Shown here piece after piece: positions 4 to 8,827 of a stretch of DNA of 14,345 bases. The translations under genes were made by a program, and so were the position numbers. The notes under the pieces are model-generated. The model saw only the letters and a list, made by a program, of their open reading frames with translations, did no database searches and was not told the origin of the DNA. Origin of the DNA: Thermodesulfobacteriota bacterium. Its GTDB lineage: Bacteria > Desulfobacterota > Desulfobacteria > Desulfobacterales > Desulfatibacillaceae. Every line of letters begins with the position of its first letter. Positions within the stretch are counted from its first letter, which is position 1. Location: the NCBI GenBank assembly GCA_040753055.1, contig JBFMHL010000078.1:1-14345 (forward strand). Reading direction: 5' to 3'.

Positions 4-750
4 TTAAATGTTCACGCGGCGGATTGCCACGCGTTCGCCGTCGAAGTGGATCATCTGCCCGCGCAGTGCAGGCCCGCGTCCCGCCAGGATGCGGATGGCT
101 TCAGCGGCCTGGATTCCGGCGATGACGGCAACGGCGGGCGAGAGGACCGCGGGCGGCTCCTTTGCTTCCTTCGCGTTGTGGAAAAGGCGGTCGAAGGCCT
201 CGTGGTCCGCGGGAAAAAAGGTCGCGGCCTGTCCGGACCATTGGGAAACCGCGCCGTGGACGAAGGGAGCGTTGAGCGTCCGGGCCGCGGCGAAGGCTGC
301 GCGGCGGGAAGCGATATTGTCCAGGCCGTCCACGATGAGGTCCGCACCGGAGAAGATGTGAATGGCCCCCTTTTCCTCTATTCTGTCTACGCGGGCCATG
401 GCTCGGGTGAAAGGGCTTGCGTCGCGCACGGCCCGTGCCGCCTGGCGGGCCTTGGCCTTGCCCAGGGCCTTGCGGGTGCAGATGGGTTGGCGGTTGGTGT
501 TGGTCTCGTCGAAGTCGTCGTCGTCTATCAGGATGAGCCTCCCCACGCCCGCGCGGGCCAGCAGCAGGCAGAGGTGCCCGCCCAGGCCCCCCAGGCCGGC
601 CACAGCCACGCAGGAGCGCAGCAGGCGCTTCTGCTCCTCGGCGCTAAGCGCCGGGCTGTTGCGGGAAAGGGCTTCCGGCCAGATGCCCTGGTCCAGATCT
701 TCCGCCGCGATTTTCGAGGGCGGGATGGACGATTCGGGGTTTTGATCCAT
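4..750 (-). CDS. ThiF/MoeB/HesA-family E1-like adenylyltransferase (sulfur-carrier-protein activating enzyme); C-terminus runs off the window edge
   Basis: Real start is at MDQNPESS (ATG = revcomp of 748-750), not the upstream in-frame extension. Glycine-rich nucleotide loop VAVAGLGGLGG and the LILIDDDDFDETN motif are typical of ThiF/MoeB. The start abuts the stop of the upstream gene. No CxxC zinc motifs are visible in the part inside the window. Confidence 0.8.
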   Translation of the reverse strand: MDQNPESSIPPSKIAAEDLDQGIWPEALSRNSPALSAEEQKRLLRSCVAVAGLGGLGGHLCLLLARAGVGRLILIDDDDFDETNTNRQPICTRKALGKAKARQAARAVRDASPFTRAMARVDRIEEKGAIHIFSGADLIVDGLDNIASRRAAFAAARTLNAPFVHGAVSQWSGQAATFFPADHEAFDRLFHNAKEAKEPPAVLSPAVAVIAGIQAAEAIRILAGRGPALRGQMIHFDGERVAIRRVNI

Positions 751-752
751 GG

Positions 753-1280
753 TCACTGCTCCCAGGGTGAAAACTCCTCGTCGGGGTTGTCCACAATCCG
801 GGAAAGCCTCATGCTTGCGTCGTTCCGGATGGCTTCCTTCATTTCCTCGCCGAAGCCGCGGGACTCCATCCAGCGTTCCAGAAGAGGCCCGCCCGGCTTC
901 CAGAGCTCCATGGTTTCCGCTTCCGTCACCCAGGCCTTGAGCCTGATCCCGTGCTTTTTCAAGATGGCCCACACCGAGTCGCGGTTGCGCCGGTCGCAGT
1001 AGACCATCATGACGCACTCCTCCATCCCCAGGTTGGTGGGTGGGTTGCGGTCGTACTTGATGCAGGGAATCATGCGGGCTTCCACATAGGGATCCAGCTT
1101 GCGCGCGAGCTCGGCGAGCTTTTCCGCGCTTCCCAGCACCAGCCATTTTCCCCAGTAGGCCAGGACCTCCCCGTTGGTCAGCGGCCGCCCCTGGAACACG
1201 GTGTACTTTTCCCCGTGGAAGATCGCAGGATGGTACACGAAGACGAAGTGGCTTTCCGGCTGGTCCACGATCACCCTCAA
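753..1280 (-). CDS. Divergent MoaE-like protein (molybdopterin synthase catalytic subunit homolog), 175 aa
   Basis: Collinear motif matches to E. coli MoaE as I remember it: N-terminal VIVDQPE vs IVVGPQP; TVFQGRP vs VTFTGKVR; SAEKLAELARKL vs TEKALAEIVDEA; VMMVYCDRRNRDSVWA vs IVFVGVTSAHRSSAFEA; ELWKPG vs PFWKRE. Start ATG overlaps the MoaD-like stop (ATGA), which fits translational coupling. It sits between a MoaD-like and a MoeB-like gene. The canonical His-Arg pair appears to be substituted. Confidence 0.5.
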   Translation of the reverse strand: MRVIVDQPESHFVFVYHPAIFHGEKYTVFQGRPLTNGEVLAYWGKWLVLGSAEKLAELARKLDPYVEARMIPCIKYDRNPPTNLGMEECVMMVYCDRRNRDSVWAILKKHGIRLKAWVTEAETMELWKPGGPLLERWMESRGFGEEMKEAIRNDASMRLSRIVDNPDEEFSPWEQ

Positions 1281-1558
1281 CCTCCGGCGGAAAGCGGGAT
1301 GATGGAGATTTCGTCCCCGTCCTTCACCCTCGTTTCGAGACCGGACAGGGAGAGGTAGTTGTCGCCGTTTAGGAACACCAGCAAGCCCGAGGCCTTGCCT
1401 TCGGGGTGGTTCAGCCGCTCGGAAAAGAGCGGAAAACGCTCAGCGACATGGTCCAGGCATTCATCCAGGGTGGTTCCTTCGGAGCTTACTTCGTCCGCTC
1501 CGCCGAACCAGCGGGAGAGCGATCCCGGAACAAGAACCGATACCGGCATGGCGTTCAC
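1277..1558 (-). CDS. MoaD/ThiS-family ubiquitin-like sulfur carrier protein (93 aa, C-terminal Gly-Gly)
   Basis: The protein ends ...GDEISIIPLSAGG, with the GDE-x-x-x-P-x-x-GG C-terminal pattern typical of MoaD/ThiS. Size fits. It lies in an operon with an E1-like enzyme. No obvious SD; the start is 7 nt after the upstream stop, so coupling is likely. Confidence 0.8.
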   Translation of the reverse strand: MNAMPVSVLVPGSLSRWFGGADEVSSEGTTLDECLDHVAERFPLFSERLNHPEGKASGLLVFLNGDNYLSLSGLETRVKDGDEISIIPLSAGG

Positions 1559-1564
1559 TCCGGC

Positions 1565-1879
1565 TCAGGAAAAGGTGAGAACCTTGTCCGCTTCCCTCAT
1601 GATCTCGTAAAGATCGTCCATCCAGGCGATGGGGCAGCTGGCGGAGCCCGCGAGACCGTGGGCTTTCATGCACACCCCTCAGACGTAGAAGTCGCCGGTG
1701 AACTGGTTGATCTGGCCCATGACGTCGAAGGCCTCGCTCCCGGCGGACTCGAAGAGCACGCCCGCCCCCAGCATGAAGACGCTCACTTCGTCGCCCTTGC
1801 GCGCGCCCGTGTTGGCGATCCGAAGGGCGTTGACCATGGTTTCGCCGTCACTGGTGGCAATGATGACAAGCAGCTTCAT
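1565..1879 (-). CDS. DsrE/DsrF-family sulfur-relay protein with an in-frame UGA (predicted selenocysteine), 104 aa on read-through
   Basis: The track ORF 1679..1879 (66 aa, MKLLVIIATSDGETMVNALRIANTGARKGDEVSVFMLGAGVLFESAGSEAFDVMGQINQFTGDFYV) ends at TGA, revcomp of 1679-1681. Read-through in the same frame gives U-GVCMKAHGLAGSASCPIAWMDDLYEIMREADKVLTFS and stops at 1565-1567. The DsrE-family active-site cysteine motif (vC...a.Gl) lies only in the read-through part, and it creates a U-x-x-C motif. There is a SECIS-like hairpin 15 nt downstream of the UGA. RBS GGAGAGG sits 6 nt upstream of the ATG. As I recall, a DsrE-like selenoprotein family has been reported in Deltaproteobacteria. Confidence 0.65.
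1645..1664 (-). promoter_or_regulatory. SECIS-like stem-loop downstream of the in-frame UGA
   Basis: mRNA sense is AGCCC-A-CG-GUCU-CG-C-GGGCU: a 5+2 bp stem with single-nt bulges and an apical loop GUCU containing G and U. The stem starts about 15 nt 3' of the UGA, which matches the spacing and form of bacterial SECIS elements. Confidence 0.45.
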
Positions 1880-1900: not shown

Positions 1901-3466
1901 CTACGCAGGCTTCTCGTTCTTTTCCTTCTTCTGCTGATGCTGCGCGACCTCGCCCAGGAAGGCGGGCAGATCGAGACCGGCCATGGCCGCCACGTCGTGG
2001 AGCGGGGGCAGGCTCTTCACCAGGCCGGAGAGGAAGTTGGCGGTGGAGGTCTTGTCTCCGTCCGCGCCGTCCCAGACCGTGACCTTGTCTATCTTGATGT
2101 TCTTGATGGCCTCCATCTGGGCGTTTACCAGGCTCTCGATCTTCTCCGTCAGGAGCAACGTGGCCACGGCCTTGGCGTCGCCGTTGCAGGACTTGATGAG
2201 CTCCAGGTAACCGGCGGCCTTGCTTTCCAGCACCATCTTCACGCCGCGGGCCTCGGCGCTGTATTTAAGCAGCACGGCGTCCGCCTCTCCGCGGGCCTCG
2301 CGGCGGGTGCGTTCGGCGGTGGCTTCGGCTGCGATCTCGATCTTTTTCCGCTCGATCTCCTGAACGACCACCTGCTCGGCGGTGAGGCGCTCCTGCTCGG
2401 CCTTGTACTGGGCCTTCTGGATCTCGGCCACGGCTTCCAGGCGGGCCACCTCTCCCTGCTGGTTGGCCTGGGCCTTCTTGACGGCCAGCCTCGCGTTGGA
2501 CTCGGCAATATTGGCCTGGGACGTGTTTTCGCCGTCCACGGCCTCGGCTTCGCGGCTCTGAACGTATACCCGGCGTTCGGCCTCGGCTTTTTTCTTGCCT
2601 TTTACGGATTCGGCCTCGTTCTCCGCCACCTTGATCTGCATAATCTTGTTGGCATCCGCTTCGCCGACGGTGGCCTTGGCTTCCTGCTGCTGTACGAAGA
2701 CCCGCTGGTCGGCCTCCGCCTGCTTCTTTCCCTTTTCGGCCTGGGCGCGGTTTTCGGCAACGCGGATTTCCTTTTCCCGCACCGCTTCGACCTCGCCGAT
2801 GGCGCCCATCTTTTCCTGGATCGCGACATCCACCTTGGCCTTGTTTACGGCCTCGGATGCGGCCTTCTTGCCGATGGACTCGATATAGCCGGACTCGTCG
2901 GTGATATCGGTGATGTTCACGTTGATGAGGTAGAGGCCAATCTTGTTGAGCTCTGGCGAGACATTCTTGCGGATGGCCTCCAGGAAGCTCTCGCGGTCCT
3001 GGTTGATCTGCTCGATGGTGAGGGAGGCGACCGTCAAACGGAGCTGGCCGAAGATGATCTCCTTGGCCATCTCCTCGATCTCTTTGGGGCTTAAGTTCAG
3101 AAGCCTTTCCGCGGCGTTGATCATGATGGCAGCTTCGGTGGAGATGCCCACCGTGAAGGTGGAGGGCACATTCACCCGGATGTTCTGCATGGAAAGAGCC
3201 TTCTGCAGGGGGATGCCGATGGTCATGGGCGTCAGGCTCATGTAGGAGTAATCCTGAATGAGCGGCCAGATGAGGGCGCCGCCGCCGTGCAGGCACCGGG
3301 CGGACTGGCCCCGCCCCACCTTGCCGTAGATCACCAGGATCTGGTCCGAGGGGCATCTTTTGTAGCGGGAGGCGAGGAACATGAGGGTGGCCACGATGAG
3401 AACCACCAGGGCCACGATGGGCAGAAGCCAGAGGCCGATGTCGAGATCCAGCGTATAACCGAACAT
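1901..3466 (-). CDS. SPFH/Band-7 flotillin-like protein (YqiK/FloA type), 522 aa
   Basis: Real start is MFGYTLDLDIGLWLLPIVALVVLIV... (ATG = revcomp of 3464-3466) with RBS AAGGAAGGGA 6 nt upstream. It has an N-terminal TM helix, an SPFH core, and a long charged EA/K/Q-rich coiled-coil tail (AEKGKKQAEADQR..., KKKAEAERR...). The in-frame upstream extension in the track lacks an RBS. Confidence 0.85.
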   Translation of the reverse strand: MFGYTLDLDIGLWLLPIVALVVLIVATLMFLASRYKRCPSDQILVIYGKVGRGQSARCLHGGGALIWPLIQDYSYMSLTPMTIGIPLQKALSMQNIRVNVPSTFTVGISTEAAIMINAAERLLNLSPKEIEEMAKEIIFGQLRLTVASLTIEQINQDRESFLEAIRKNVSPELNKIGLYLINVNITDITDESGYIESIGKKAASEAVNKAKVDVAIQEKMGAIGEVEAVREKEIRVAENRAQAEKGKKQAEADQRVFVQQQEAKATVGEADANKIMQIKVAENEAESVKGKKKAEAERRVYVQSREAEAVDGENTSQANIAESNARLAVKKAQANQQGEVARLEAVAEIQKAQYKAEQERLTAEQVVVQEIERKKIEIAAEATAERTRREARGEADAVLLKYSAEARGVKMVLESKAAGYLELIKSCNGDAKAVATLLLTEKIESLVNAQMEAIKNIKIDKVTVWDGADGDKTSTANFLSGLVKSLPPLHDVAAMAGLDLPAFLGEVAQHQQKKEKNEKPA

Positions 3467-3745
3467 GTTGTCCCTTCCTTTTAGAGAATTTCCCAGGCCT
3501 CCCGGTTCGGGTGCGGCCCGAAAGTCTTGCGATGCAGAGAACAGCCGGACAATGGGTTTGGGTCGGTCCGCCGCCACGGGAGACGTCGGCCCTGCGAGCC
3601 CGTTCGCCGGGGGGGCACGGGCCCCGGACGTGCGGCTGTTTTACACGGTGCGTATCAAAGCAGGATGGCTGCTGCGGTCCGCGAAGGCGCACCGTAGCCG
3701 GCTTGCCTTCCTGGGCCAACCTGATACCAGAAGCTCGCGCGGGCG

Positions 3746-3761
3746 GCAAGGCGAATTCCAG
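3746..3761 (-). promoter_or_regulatory. Candidate sigma-54 (-24/-12) element upstream of the flotillin gene
   Basis: Minus-sense TGGAATTCGCCTTGCC, compared with consensus TGGCACG-N4-TTGCW, has the correct 10-nt spacing between the GG and GC dinucleotides. It lies about 280 nt upstream of the flotillin start. This is a weak, motif-only call. Confidence 0.2.
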
Positions 3762-3818
3762 GCGCGGGCAATGACTAGAAGCTATCTCAAGAACAAGAAT
3801 AAGAAGGCAAAGGCTTTT

Positions 3819-3872
3819 GCGGGGGAGGGGGGAAACCCCTTGTGAACAAGCTGGCTTTTCTCCCTCCCCCGC
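3819..3872 (-). terminator. Long perfect G/C inverted repeat (11-bp stem, 32-nt loop) in the nfeD-flotillin gap; possible terminator or attenuator
   Basis: GCGGGGGAGGG (3819-3829) pairs perfectly with CCCTCCCCCGC (3862-3872). In minus sense it is followed by a second small hairpin (GCAAA-agcc-TTTGC) and then the U-rich tract CUUCUUAUUCUUGUUCUUG. It sits 270 nt downstream of the nfeD stop. Confidence 0.3.
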
Positions 3873-3993
3873 ACCCCCTCTCCCTTTTGAGGCAAAACTT
3901 TTTGAACTGGGCCCAAAGGCTGGCATCCGAGGCCCACAGCTCATAGTGGCAAGAAAATCGCTCCCGCCGGGGAACGAAATGGTATTTAGAAAT

Positions 3994-4011
3994 GGGATAT
4001 CCCCTATAGGG
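3994..4011. promoter_or_regulatory. Two overlapping perfect 10-bp palindromes, GGGATATCCC and CCCTATAGGG, in a low-GC intergenic stretch
   Basis: Each decamer is its own reverse complement and they overlap by 2 nt. They sit in the AT-richer part of the 675-bp gap. This looks like a candidate dimeric regulator-binding site. Confidence 0.2.
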
Positions 4012-4141
4012 AAACTCTCTTGAGATGAGTTATAGAAGAGGTCTCCAGCCACGAAGCGCGCAACGGATCCGGAATAGGGAAGGCTTTTCTTGTTCATCTT
4101 CCCGGACCCAGCGCTCGGACCGGACCCGTTCATCGGGGAGG

Positions 4142-4723
4142 CTACGGGGAAAGATCCGCGGAAACCAGGAGCTTGGTGCCGGCAAGGCCGGATACCGTAA
4201 CAGGGGTGCCTGTTTTCAGCTCCTTGCCGTCCTTCTCCATGGCTTCGAACTCCCGGAGCCGTCCGCTCACCTTCACCAAGACAATGCCCACGCCTTTTGC
4301 CGGAATGTTGAGGTACACCTCCCCGCGGCAGCCCACCGCGTCCTCCAGGGAAAGGGTTCCGGAGGACTGGAGCTTGAGCATCATGTGAAGAAGCTTGGCG
4401 ATGAGCCATACGGTGAAGAGCCCGGCAGCCGTGGCCCCGACAAAGGAAAGCGCGATGCCGGTGCGGCTCTGCTTGCTCATGGCGAGCCCCACCAGGCCGA
4501 ACATGAGGAAAAAGCCGGTCAGGCCCTGTACGGAAAGAAGCCGGAAACCGAAGTCGCCGTGGCCGGCGTCGCCCACATCGCCCGCCCCCAGGTCCCCGTC
4601 CCCGTGATGATCCATTCCCAGGAACTGAAGCGCCATGCGGACGATCAGGAGCAACCCTCCCAAGACGGCGCAAGCGAGGTAGATCAGGTCAACCAACGTG
4701 AGGTCCGTGAGGATGGTCTTCAT
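4142..4723 (-). CDS. NfeD-like membrane protein (YqiJ/YuaF type, flotillin partner), 193 aa
   Basis: It has an N-terminal TM helix, an Asp/Gly/His-rich stretch (MDHHGDGDLGAGDVGDAGHGDFG), and further TM helices. The C-terminal soluble beta-rich domain GEVYLNIPAKGVGIVLVKVSGRLREFEAM is typical of the NfeD OB-fold. GGAG lies 9 nt upstream of the ATG. Confidence 0.7.
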   Translation of the reverse strand: MKTILTDLTLVDLIYLACAVLGGLLLIVRMALQFLGMDHHGDGDLGAGDVGDAGHGDFGFRLLSVQGLTGFFLMFGLVGLAMSKQSRTGIALSFVGATAAGLFTVWLIAKLLHMMLKLQSSGTLSLEDAVGCRGEVYLNIPAKGVGIVLVKVSGRLREFEAMEKDGKELKTGTPVTVSGLAGTKLLVSADLSP

Positions 4724-5548: not shown

Positions 5549-6124
5549 TTACGGGGTCCCTTCAGCCGCCCGCTTTTCTTCCACCTCGTTGAGCTCCTTC
5601 TCGTAGGCTAGCCTCTTTTGCTGGTAGGCGCCGATCCTGTCGTTGAGCTCCTGGATGCGGGAGTTCAACGCCCTGCCGGGTGAGGAGCGCTGTACGGACT
5701 TGCGGAGGGTTTCCACTTCTGCAATCTCGGCGGACAGAGCCTGATATTCTTCGTCCAGAGTCTTTTTTTGCACTTCCAGGCGCGCTTTGGCTTCTTGGTA
5801 CTCTTTCTCAGCCCGGGAGTCCTGCATGCCTGAAGCGGCATCCTCCGGCTGTGCCGTCTTCTTCTGGGAAGGTTTGGGCGCCTGGTTCCGGATGGCCTGC
5901 TCCCTGGCCGCCTGGTTTGTCGCCCGTTCCTCGGGGGTCAGGCTGTCTTCCACCTCCGTGTAGGTATCCACTTTGGGACGCTGGTTTGCAGGGACCTGGG
6001 AAAGATCGTCCGTGTAACGCACCGCACCGTTCTGGTCGGTGTAGCGGTAGAACTCGGCAAGGGCCCCGGATGAAAAAACGCCGAACACAAAAAAACAAAC
6101 CAAGGTCGCTGCGATTTTTTTCAT
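5549..6124 (-). CDS. Secreted DUF4124-domain protein with C-terminal coiled coil (paralog A), 192 aa
   Basis: Start MKKIAATLVCFFVFGVFSSGALA is a signal peptide; GGAGG lies about 10 nt upstream. The DUF4124-like signature is EFYRYTDQNGAVRYTDDLSQVP. The C-terminus is a coiled coil (KEYQEAKARLEVQKKTLDEEYQALSAEIAEVETLRK...). Domain order matches the downstream paralog. Confidence 0.75.
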   Translation of the reverse strand: MKKIAATLVCFFVFGVFSSGALAEFYRYTDQNGAVRYTDDLSQVPANQRPKVDTYTEVEDSLTPEERATNQAAREQAIRNQAPKPSQKKTAQPEDAASGMQDSRAEKEYQEAKARLEVQKKTLDEEYQALSAEIAEVETLRKSVQRSSPGRALNSRIQELNDRIGAYQQKRLAYEKELNEVEEKRAAEGTP

Positions 6125-6152
6125 GACGCAGAGCCTCCGGATCGGAAAAGAA

Positions 6153-6818
6153 CTAACGGCCTTTTTTCTGGGACGTGATTTTCTGCTGGGCCTGGCGAAC
6201 CAGGTACTCCGCCAGGGAAAGGCCGAGTTTTTTTGCCTCGAGCTTCTGCATCTCGATGTTGAACACGGCGACGAGCTCCGGCGGCACGGGCATGCCGAAC
6301 TCGCGCTGGAAGGTTTCCGTGAGCTTCTCCATGGAAGGGTTATCGCCGGAAACCACATTGCGCAGAAGCTCGATCTTGGATTTGCCGGTGGCTACCTTGA
6401 CCCCGGCGGATACCACAGCCTTGCGCCGCAGCTCGGCACGGAAGAATGCCACGATGGCTGGGGAGGGTCTTTCCCCGCGTTTTTCCAAAAAGACCTGCTG
6501 GAGCTTTTCGGTGCTGGGCTCGTCCTGGGCCACAACGGAGCGCACCAGCTCCAAGGCCGACTCGCCCGCGGTGCGGGTAATTTCTTCCTTCTTTTTTTCC
6601 CTCCGGGCGACTTCCTTTTGGAAGAGCTGTACCAGGTCGGGAGTCGCGGGGCGGCCGAACTCCTCCATCACCGTCTTGTGCAACACGGAAAGAGAAGGGT
6701 TTTCCTGCGCCGCTACCGTTTTGACCAGAGCCACCTTCATCTTGAACAGAAGGTCGCCTTCGCCGGGAAGATCGGACGGATTGGGAGCCGGATTCGATGA
6801 TTCGTTTGAAGCCTGCAT
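6153..6818 (-). CDS. Hypothetical protein made of three tandem ~55-aa internal repeats (221 aa); family not recognised
   Basis: Repeat units: (1) KMKVALVKTVAAQENPSLSVLHKTVMEEFGRPATPDLVQLFQKEVARRE; (2) ALELVRSVVAQDEPSTEKLQQVFLEKRGERPSPAIVAFFRAELRRK; (3) KIELLRNVVSGDNPSMEKLTETFQREFGMPVPPELVAVFNIEMQKLEAK. Shared pattern is lv+.Vv..#nPS.ekL...f.eefG.P..Pe.V..F..E. GC3 codon bias is strong. The plus-strand ORFs overlapping it are R/S-rich antisense artefacts. Confidence 0.65.
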   Translation of the reverse strand: MQASNESSNPAPNPSDLPGEGDLLFKMKVALVKTVAAQENPSLSVLHKTVMEEFGRPATPDLVQLFQKEVARREKKKEEITRTAGESALELVRSVVAQDEPSTEKLQQVFLEKRGERPSPAIVAFFRAELRRKAVVSAGVKVATGKSKIELLRNVVSGDNPSMEKLTETFQREFGMPVPPELVAVFNIEMQKLEAKKLGLSLAEYLVRQAQQKITSQKKGR

Positions 6819-6863
6819 GGCGGCTTTTCTTTTGATGCAAAGGGTTTTCGTTACGTTTTCTAG

Positions 6864-6892
6864 GTTATAAACCTTTCCGTAAAAAAGTACAA
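6864..6892 (-). promoter_or_regulatory. Sigma-70-like promoter for the repeat-protein operon
   Basis: Minus-sense TTGTAC (revcomp of 6887-6892), a 17-nt spacer, then TATAAC (revcomp of 6864-6869). It lies in a low-GC intergenic region about 45 nt upstream of the CDS start at 6818. Confidence 0.35.
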
Positions 6893-7118
6893 CTTTAATG
6901 AAAACAAAGGCATAACAACAGATGAACCGTACCCCCTCCCATACATGCCAAATGATGCGAAGAGGTTAAAATTTGCTTCGGAGGCCCCAAGACGGAGTGG
7001 CGGGCCCGCGCAAAATGCTCGAATAAGAACTCCATGCTCCATTTATTCCCGAAGCAGCGCCGTGCCCTTGAGCCCGATCCACGAATCTTGAAACCACGGC
7101 TCGCTTTGCGTTCGGCGA

Positions 7119-8463: not shown

Positions 8464-8827
8464 GGTTCATCCTTCCTGTCCTAAATATAAAAGCATAGCA
8501 GAAAGGCCGGCAGCCCTCAAACGGTTTGCATTCCCACTTGAATAACATGCTGTCCCTTCGGGAAAAAATTAGTAAAAATACTAGGGCTGTTTCCAATGTG
8601 CGGCGCCATGCTCTCCTGCAAAATAGAAGCCCTTAGACGCCCCTAAAACCGGGTTGTCAACGCCGGCAAGGACCGAGTGGCGCTTGTTCTCACAGCACAC
8701 AGAGAAAGAAAAAGGGAAGAGGTCTCCGAGGAGGAGGCGGCAGGGCCGAAAGTGCATGTTGGAAGCATGCGGCCGGGCAGCCGAAAGGAATGGGGATCGG
8801 CAGATGGCGCGCTTTTGCGGGTGGTCT

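Follow-up and report, generated by a model that had tools for sequence, protein, structure and literature searches.

In a metagenome-assembled genome (MAG) of a Thermodesulfobacteriota bacterium held at NCBI, the genes for NfeD and flotillin are separated by 675 nt of DNA. We analysed the whole 14,345-bp contig that carries them (hereafter the window) and confirmed that this gap exists, is non-coding and has an exceptional length. It is best explained, with a probability that we put at about 0.5, as a lineage-specific regulatory spacer in which a terminator, an internal promoter and a long leader uncouple flotillin from nfeD. An earlier note, made from the sequence of the window, had drawn attention to the gap and offered three explanations: a terminator/re-initiation unit, a long structured 5' untranslated region (UTR) of the flotillin transcript, or an antisense or small RNA gene. 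This interpretation is partly supported, mostly through features other than those that had been flagged. The first two options, taken together, fit best with a conserved promoter-shaped block, a stem-loop that follows it and a terminator-like hairpin that precedes it, whereas the third finds neither an Rfam match nor a promoter-terminator pair that would frame a small transcript. Every gene around the gap lies on the minus strand, and coordinates in descending order are read in the sense of these genes.

An exceptionally long non-coding spacer between nfeD and flotillin

The boundaries of the gap are given by the two flanking genes. The nfeD open reading frame (ORF) runs from 4723 to 4142 and ends in a TAG at 4144-4142, and its product is identical to the NCBI MAG protein AB1921_04485. 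The flotillin ATG lies at 3466, is preceded by the ribosome-binding site (RBS) AAGGAAGGGA at 3480 to 3471, and is also the start from which NCBI calls the same 521-aa product. The gap therefore spans 3467-4141, as the earlier note had it.

A scan of a genome collection with the flotillin returned 80 loci at 64-77% identity. A nfeD homologue lies directly upstream of flotillin in 79 of these (the exception being L026), with a spacer of 14 nt in the median and 188 nt at most, as against 675 nt here; a few negative spacer values are artefacts of automatic stop and start calling. The premise that the two genes are usually adjacent or overlapping is thus borne out, and the short spacers agree with the literature, which describes an nfeD-headed operon with flotillin in second place (PMC11222466). 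The spacer is enlarged in the two closest relatives of the window, to 215 nt in contig L081 and 323 nt in contig L082, and measures 16 nt in the next relative, L083. In a search with NfeD, L081 and L082 were the only close relatives, at 73% identity (next best 54%, L083), and their flotillin N-termini are 92-95% identical to that of the window, all other matches being at 85% or below. The upstream DUF4124 gene is common to all three, and both flanks of the gap are syntenic. Three more searches added no further clade member: a metagenome scan with the pattern of the conserved block described below gave one chance match only, in an AT-rich coding region (L084), and two protein searches with the flotillin N-terminus gave no additional sequence above 85% identity. 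Look-ups of the window's own proteins gave no contigs on record.

Alignment of the three gaps reveals a two-part make-up. The flotillin-proximal part, approximately 3756 to 3467, is shared by the clade and holds one conserved block; the remainder is unalignable and variable in length. The 370 nt next to nfeD (4141 to 3771) have no counterpart in L081 or L082, and the first homologous position, at about 3770, matches the bases that immediately follow the nfeD stop in L082. This segment is present only in this genome, as judged against the two close relatives and the wider related loci, the latter showing no similarity to any part of the gap. The comparison proposed in the earlier note thus uncovered conservation in the flotillin-proximal part, but not of the 3819-3872 stem for which it had been intended, which is absent from both relatives and from all 80 wider loci. 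The parts also differ in guanine-plus-cytosine (GC) content, which is about 0.52-0.56 in the nfeD-proximal half (3770-4141) and about 0.65-0.68, above the coding average, in the flotillin-proximal half; the description of the gap as low in GC holds for the former only, the latter being GC-richer than the genes.

No protein is encoded in the gap as far as its composition and database searches tell. GC at codon positions 1, 2 and 3 is about equal in all six frames, in either half, and hence shows no codon periodicity, whereas the real genes of the window have a GC of 0.68-0.88 at third and 0.37-0.53 at second positions. Pfam was run on 19 ORFs, namely 15 annotated or candidate genes and four ORFs inside the gap, and matched none of the latter four. 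None of five gap ORFs was present when looked up exactly in a collection of 15 billion proteins, tblastx of the gap gave no signal, and no tRNAs, tmRNAs or tandem repeats were found in it. On these grounds we rejected a protein-coding gene or pseudogene and concur with the previous view that the gap holds no credible ORF. The minus-strand ORF beginning MNKKSLPYSG, likewise dismissed before, is part of an 802-aa shadow ORF that crosses flotillin in the wrong frame. This stop-free frame (2265-4673, minus strand) extends from within nfeD through the entire gap into flotillin, most of which it covers, and is an artefact typical of GC-rich sequence.

Canonical nfeD-flotillin operons include yuaF-floT of Bacillus subtilis and yqiJ-yqiK of Escherichia coli. 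The window has the same gene pair in the same order, with nfeD first and the flotillin/SPFH gene second. However, the canonical genes lie about 14 nt apart or overlap and are co-transcribed, whereas here 675 nt of non-coding DNA with terminator-like and promoter-like signals lie between them. After this gap, the next longest intergenic spacers of the contig lie between same-strand genes and measure 364 nt (8464-8827) and 300 nt (6819-7118), with a GC of 0.47-0.52; it may be that this genome has long, comparatively AT-rich spacers as a rule.

The promoter-shaped block and the flotillin leader

The conserved block reads GCCTTGCC-N10-GCTTCTG-N-TATCAG in all three clade members (3752 to 3721 in the window, where this pattern has a single match). 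It comprises a -35-like TTGCCG at 3749-3744, which is TTGCCG or TTGCCC (TTGCCs) across the clade, a -10-like hexamer TATCAG at 3726-3721, and a TG at 3729-3728, one base upstream of the hexamer, so that the extended -10 contexts of the three genomes are TGgTATCAG, TGaTATCAG and TGcTATCAG. The spacer between TTGCCs and TATCAG is exactly 17 nt in all three, its length being fixed and its sequence not conserved. Two conserved elements, a variable spacer of fixed length and a TG are the conservation pattern of a promoter. Blastn aligns the block with an E-value of about 1e-7 and the rest of the gaps is unalignable, which argues for selection on the block. From the nfeD stop it is separated by very different distances, 3 nt in L081, 26 nt in L082 and 385 nt in the window, whereas the distance from the hexamer to the flotillin ATG stays within 182-268 nt (254, 268 and 182 nt in the three clade members); the block thus travels with flotillin and functionally belongs to it.

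Measured against a sigma-70 promoter, the block has a TTGACA-like -35 element 17 nt from the -10 hexamer, within the 17±1 nt of such promoters, and the TG of an extended -10, from which promoter activity is predicted. Several points weigh against this assignment and the explanation built on it. The -35 element matches at only four of six positions, and TATCAG has the A at position 2 but a G in place of the highly conserved final T at position 6; because the hexamer ends in G, a consensus promoter scan does not report the block. In L081 the block begins 3 nt past the nfeD stop with no terminator between, and might there just as well act as RNA within a transcript that reads through from nfeD. 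The covariation of the stem-loop described next is weak (covariation term -0.22, three sequences), and terminator-like sites are not more frequent in the window than in shuffled sequence (22 versus 17.4).

The predicted flotillin transcript would open with a stem-loop, which begins 6-11 nt past the -10-like hexamer in all three genomes and is present in the minimum free energy (MFE) fold of all three leaders. Its arms are GAAGGC (3710-3705) and GCCTTC (3688-3683) in the window, GGGAAAGG and CCTTTCCC in L082, and CGGAAAAGG and CCTTTTCCG in L081. In the consensus fold three of nine pairs carry compensatory changes (G-C to A-U), which, with three sequences only, are suggestive. Conservation across the three known clade members extends to the promoter-shaped block, the stem-loop and a pyrimidine-rich box further downstream. 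The remainder of the leader, which is about 180-270 nt long across the clade, is poorly alignable and variable in length. Its ratio of C to G is only 1.0-1.8, which is suggestive at most of a Rho-utilisation character. As a separate observation, the flotillin leader of L081 carries an A8 run followed by a GC-rich hairpin at about 925-990; the opposite strand thereby reads as a stem followed by T8, an almost perfect intrinsic terminator, and there is no converging gene on the 1.6-kb contig.

Two known types of leader resemble this arrangement. In ompA-type 5' UTRs a 5'-terminal stem-loop serves as mRNA stabiliser, and by analogy the stem-loop is likely a protector of the 5' end that may stabilise the flotillin mRNA. 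As in an extended -10 promoter joined to an ompA-type 5' UTR, all three genomes have TTGCCs, a 17-nt spacer, TG and a stem-loop near the predicted +1; unlike there, the leader sequence is unrelated, the -10 ends in G and the +1 is predicted from sequence alone. STAB-SD is a 5' stabiliser in which a sequence like that of Shine-Dalgarno (SD) lies near the 5' end of the Bacillus thuringiensis cryIIIA mRNA. Here too, an SD-like purine run (AGGAAGG, GAAAGGAA or AAAAGGA) opens a long leader, far from the start codon, and this word of 7-8 nt in the 5' arm is shared with the SD region of the same species. However, the run is here paired inside the stem and the host belongs to the Thermodesulfobacteriota, not the Firmicutes; the likeness is one of sequence. 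Masking of the flotillin SD by the 3' arm or the pyrimidine box, through pairing with the block, was considered and rejected, as 350, 244 and 30 of 500 shuffles in the three genomes do at least as well, and the SD is not sequestered in the MFE folds of the three leaders.

The segment found only in this genome

In operon sense, the nfeD-proximal segment presents a long hairpin, two overlapping palindromes, a terminator-like site and a large GC-rich hairpin (Table 1). The long imperfect hairpin directly after the nfeD stop (4124 to 4044) folds with -42.3 kcal/mol (z = -2.3) and has no similarity in L081 or L082. The terminator-like site, the second best of 22 in the window, lies 165 nt downstream of the nfeD stop and is oriented with nfeD. 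It consists, from 3977 to 3958, of an 8-bp stem with five G-C pairs and a CGGC loop, with UUUUCUU following immediately, and so combines the GC-rich stem, the 4-nt loop, the U tract and the orientation of an intrinsic terminator. Termination at the gap hairpins is predicted; if the site at 3977 to 3948 does terminate, flotillin, whose gene is intact and conserved, must have a promoter beyond that site.

The large hairpin is the 11-bp perfect G/C inverted repeat with a 32-nt loop that had been flagged before, and it is present as described: its arms GCGGGGGAGGG and CCCTCCCCCGC lie at 3819-3829 and 3862-3872 and extend to 21-nt arms. The fold from 3873 to 3818 reaches -50 to -53.5 kcal/mol (z = -2.5 to -2.9), and on the plus strand the core stem is followed by a C-rich tail, ACCCCCTCTCCCTTTT..AAAACTTT. 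In minus sense AAAAGCC comes between the stem and a U-rich stretch, and the hairpin is therefore not a canonical terminator. A G-quadruplex motif on the minus (sense) strand, at 3862-3884, overlaps the 5' arm; it was discarded as a distinctive feature because a second such canonical motif, on the same strand, lies inside nfeD (4581-4603). The covariance-model comparison with Rfam that had been proposed as a check gave no family at gathering score in the whole window, and in the gap at E<=10 only sub-threshold microRNA-type noise on the large hairpin; the gaps of L081 and L082 and a phage look-alike of the hairpin likewise returned nothing.

Such look-alikes emerged when viral contigs were scanned with the hairpin arms and the C-rich tail: L089, L094/L101, L114 and L171, and more weakly L175. 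The similarity reaches well past the search patterns, the shared parts being a G-rich arm, a small palindromic loop, TTCTCCCTCCCCC, CCCCCnCC, a TTCC-like run and AAA(A/G)ACTTT. A covariance model built from four look-alikes scores the window copy at 78.7 bits, but the viral loci were chosen by pattern and such similarity statistics are biased, so that we treat the relationship as probable only. Together with the window element, the look-alikes, which occur in several phage or prophage contigs, make up a loosely related group of intergenic elements, each some 87 nt long, that is not in Rfam. In L094 and L089 the element stands between phage structural genes arranged in tandem, in either orientation, and in L114 it separates divergent genes; these contexts argue against a simple terminator role and for a self-contained palindromic element. 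The gap had no match in plasmid and phage collections, and nothing relevant to the hairpin arm sequence was found in the literature.

Table 1. Features of the nfeD-flotillin gap and its flanks in the window, with hairpin look-alikes in viral contigs
Feature	Position	Strand	Basis
nfeD coding sequence, 193 aa, upstream gene	4142-4723	-	ORF; homologues named NfeD or with PF01957
Long imperfect hairpin directly after nfeD stop; this genome only	4044-4124	-	fold
Two overlapping 10-bp palindromes, GGGATATCCC and CCCTATAGGG; probably chance	3994-4011	.	shuffles, fold
Intrinsic-terminator-like site	3948-3977	-	terminator scan, fold of -12.7 kcal/mol
GC-rich palindromic element, ~90 nt, core stem 3818-3873	3806-3900	.	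folds, similarity to phage contigs
Sigma-54-like TGG-N8-TTGC, overlapping the -35-like element; judged coincidental	3746-3760	-	pattern scan
Clade-conserved promoter-shaped block	3721-3749	-	alignment of three clade members
Conserved stem-loop at predicted 5' end of flotillin transcript	3679-3714	-	MFE folds, consensus fold
Conserved pyrimidine-rich box CCAyCCTnCTTyGA	3655-3668	-	invariant alignment columns
Variable GC-rich (~66%) remainder of leader, C slightly above G	3481-3654	-	alignment, composition
Flotillin RBS (3480-3471) and coding sequence, 521 aa, SPFH/Band 7 and Flot domains	1901-3480	-	ORF, domain search
Look-alike in L089	9243-9328		
Look-alike in L094	1291-1376		
Look-alike in L101	5811-5896	-	
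Look-alike in L114	6621-6707		
Look-alike in L171	4129-4222		
Look-alike in L175	2477-2552	-	

Some observations concern the neighbouring genes. Two adjacent DUF4124 proteins precede nfeD. Also on the minus strand, two mechanically called ORFs, 5549-6358 and 6153-6818, share 206 nt; the upstream one (6153-6818) has no Pfam match, and its status as a real gene may be doubted. Downstream of flotillin, 4-1879 (minus strand) holds a 66-aa ORF without Pfam match, a ThiS-like gene and a ThiF-family gene whose first 164 residues are without Pfam match. Near flotillin in 83 related loci only the ThiF-family neighbour was matched, by one weak match (L008, 36% identity); the flotillin-sulfur-relay operon of the earlier note is therefore contig-specific or unverified.

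Origin of the spacer, competing explanations and significance

We propose that an ancestral tight nfeD-flotillin junction gained, in this clade, a spacer with an internal promoter, a 5' stem-loop and a long leader, and that in the present genome a further 370 nt, with a terminator-like hairpin and a phage-like palindromic element, would have been inserted between nfeD and the promoter. Transcription through nfeD would meet the long hairpin, then the terminator at 3977 to 3948 and then the stable GC hairpin at 3873 to 3818, and flotillin and the following genes would be transcribed from an internal sigma-70 extended -10 promoter (3749 to 3721). The resulting flotillin mRNA would have a leader of about 250 nt, the first nucleotides of which fold into the conserved stem-loop. 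In this way the nfeD-flotillin pair would be split into two transcription units by a terminator/re-initiation unit.

The conserved block may have a different nature. Instead of being a promoter, it could act in cis as an RNA element within a polycistronic mRNA of nfeD and flotillin; this is the main rival of our preferred reading, although we consider it unlikely. Such an element might be an intercistronic stem-loop that serves as a processing site or confers differential stability, or a riboregulator of translation, with access to the flotillin RBS controlled by the SD-like 5' arm and a CCUUUCC-like 3' arm (anti-SD). The close succession of nfeD stop and block in both relatives, with no terminator between, speaks for this possibility, as do the compensatory changes that maintain the stem-loop and the word that its 5' arm shares with each species' own SD region. 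However, conservation peaks ahead of the stem-loop, where two hexamer-like blocks stand at a constant distance with a sequence-variable spacer between them; this pattern is expected for DNA recognition and not for RNA structure. Moreover, pairing between block and SD is no better than with shuffled blocks, the SD is free in the MFE folds, and in the window a terminator-like site stands between nfeD and the block. Far less probable is a sigma-54 promoter, TGGAATTCGCCTTGC (3760 to 3746), activated from the palindromes at 3994-4011 as enhancer-like sites. The motif, which the earlier note had placed at 3746-3761, does exist, has the exact GG-N10-GC spacing in the window and lies some 240 nt from the palindromes upstream, but it is not conserved, the spacing being GG-N9-GC in L082 and the GG at -24 being missing in L081. 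Its core pattern occurs at a near-chance frequency (five matches in the window versus 2.5 expected, the others in coding sequence), and Pfam found no sigma-54 activator domain (AAA+, Sigma54_activat) in the 15 annotated or candidate genes of the 14-kb contig. The palindromes (3994-4003 and 4002-4011), also correctly noted before, are no more frequent than chance (19 of 10 bp in the window versus 17 in shuffles) and have a local fold of z = 0, and we rejected them as operators on account of their frequency.

The nfeD-proximal 370 nt might, for their part, have been inserted passively and have no regulatory function themselves, be they a small element of mobile or palindromic type or DNA that was acquired horizontally and has decayed. 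The large GC hairpin would then be a selfish or phage-derived palindrome, not a terminator or an RNA gene. We give this a lower probability than the regulatory spacer and a somewhat higher one than the RNA element, and it is compatible with either a promoter or an RNA element in the flotillin-proximal part. The segment is absent from both close and all wider relatives, its GC is about 10 points below that of its surroundings, and its hairpin and C-rich tail resemble the elements in L089, L094/L101, L114 and L171, whose tandem and divergent contexts count against a pure terminator role. On the other hand, candidate terminal inverted repeats around 3775-4035 have 9-bp exact cores, which by our own estimate is about the chance level for 675 nt, and there is no clear target duplication around the segment. 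No second copy of the element occurs in the 14-kb window or, by the covariance model of the look-alikes, in 667 kb of relatives' loci (83 genome loci), and the missing match in phage and plasmid collections and the selection of the viral loci by pattern also tell against an insertion of this kind. The element is likewise comparable to repetitive extragenic palindromic (REP) sequences, bacterial interspersed mosaic elements (BIMEs) and miniature inverted-repeat transposable elements (MITEs) in being a GC-rich intergenic hairpin of about 90 nt with look-alikes in unrelated contigs, where these take both orientations and varied gene contexts. It differs from them in having no GTAG-type REP head, neither terminal repeats nor a target duplication that would convince, with flanking inverted repeats at chance level, and no multiple copies in the window and the relatives' loci. 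An 18-nt direct repeat (15 of 18 identical), at 3599-3616 in the leader and at 4125-4142 abutting the nfeD stop, is probably due to chance; it could mark an insertion-associated duplication. That the gap hides a small RNA or small protein gene, or is an artefact of assembly, is hardly credible. Strong local structure and a stop-free minus frame across the whole gap might suggest a hidden gene, but no Rfam family reaches gathering score, codon periodicity, Pfam matches and recorded gap ORFs are lacking, and the frame in question is the shadow ORF typical of GC-rich DNA. The synteny of both flanks with L081 and L082, including the DUF4124 gene, argues against a chimeric join.

A bolder idea, to which we assign only a slim chance, is that the block of about 110 nt from 3756 to 3650 is the core of an undescribed cis-regulatory leader RNA, confined to flotillin in an uncultured clade of Thermodesulfobacteriota, or, alternatively, that the GC hairpin of about 90 nt represents an unnamed class of palindromes common to phages and bacteria. 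In such a leader RNA, the SD-mimic/anti-SD stem-loop and the pyrimidine box may sense temperature, membrane stress or a protein partner, and may thereby gate flotillin translation or Rho-dependent read-through.

In our preferred reading, that of a regulatory spacer with a terminator, an internal promoter and a long leader, the gap is an ordinary intergenic control architecture at an unusual position, and it includes a small conserved leader motif that is absent from Rfam and a hairpin element with phage look-alikes. The conserved leader block, known from three sequences, is a candidate regulatory motif. Flotillin and NfeD are thought to cooperate, and their genes are nearly always neighbours that are expressed together. 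If this reading is true, the level of flotillin could be set independently of that of NfeD in this small clade, which would offer a natural experiment on whether a fixed NfeD/flotillin stoichiometry matters.

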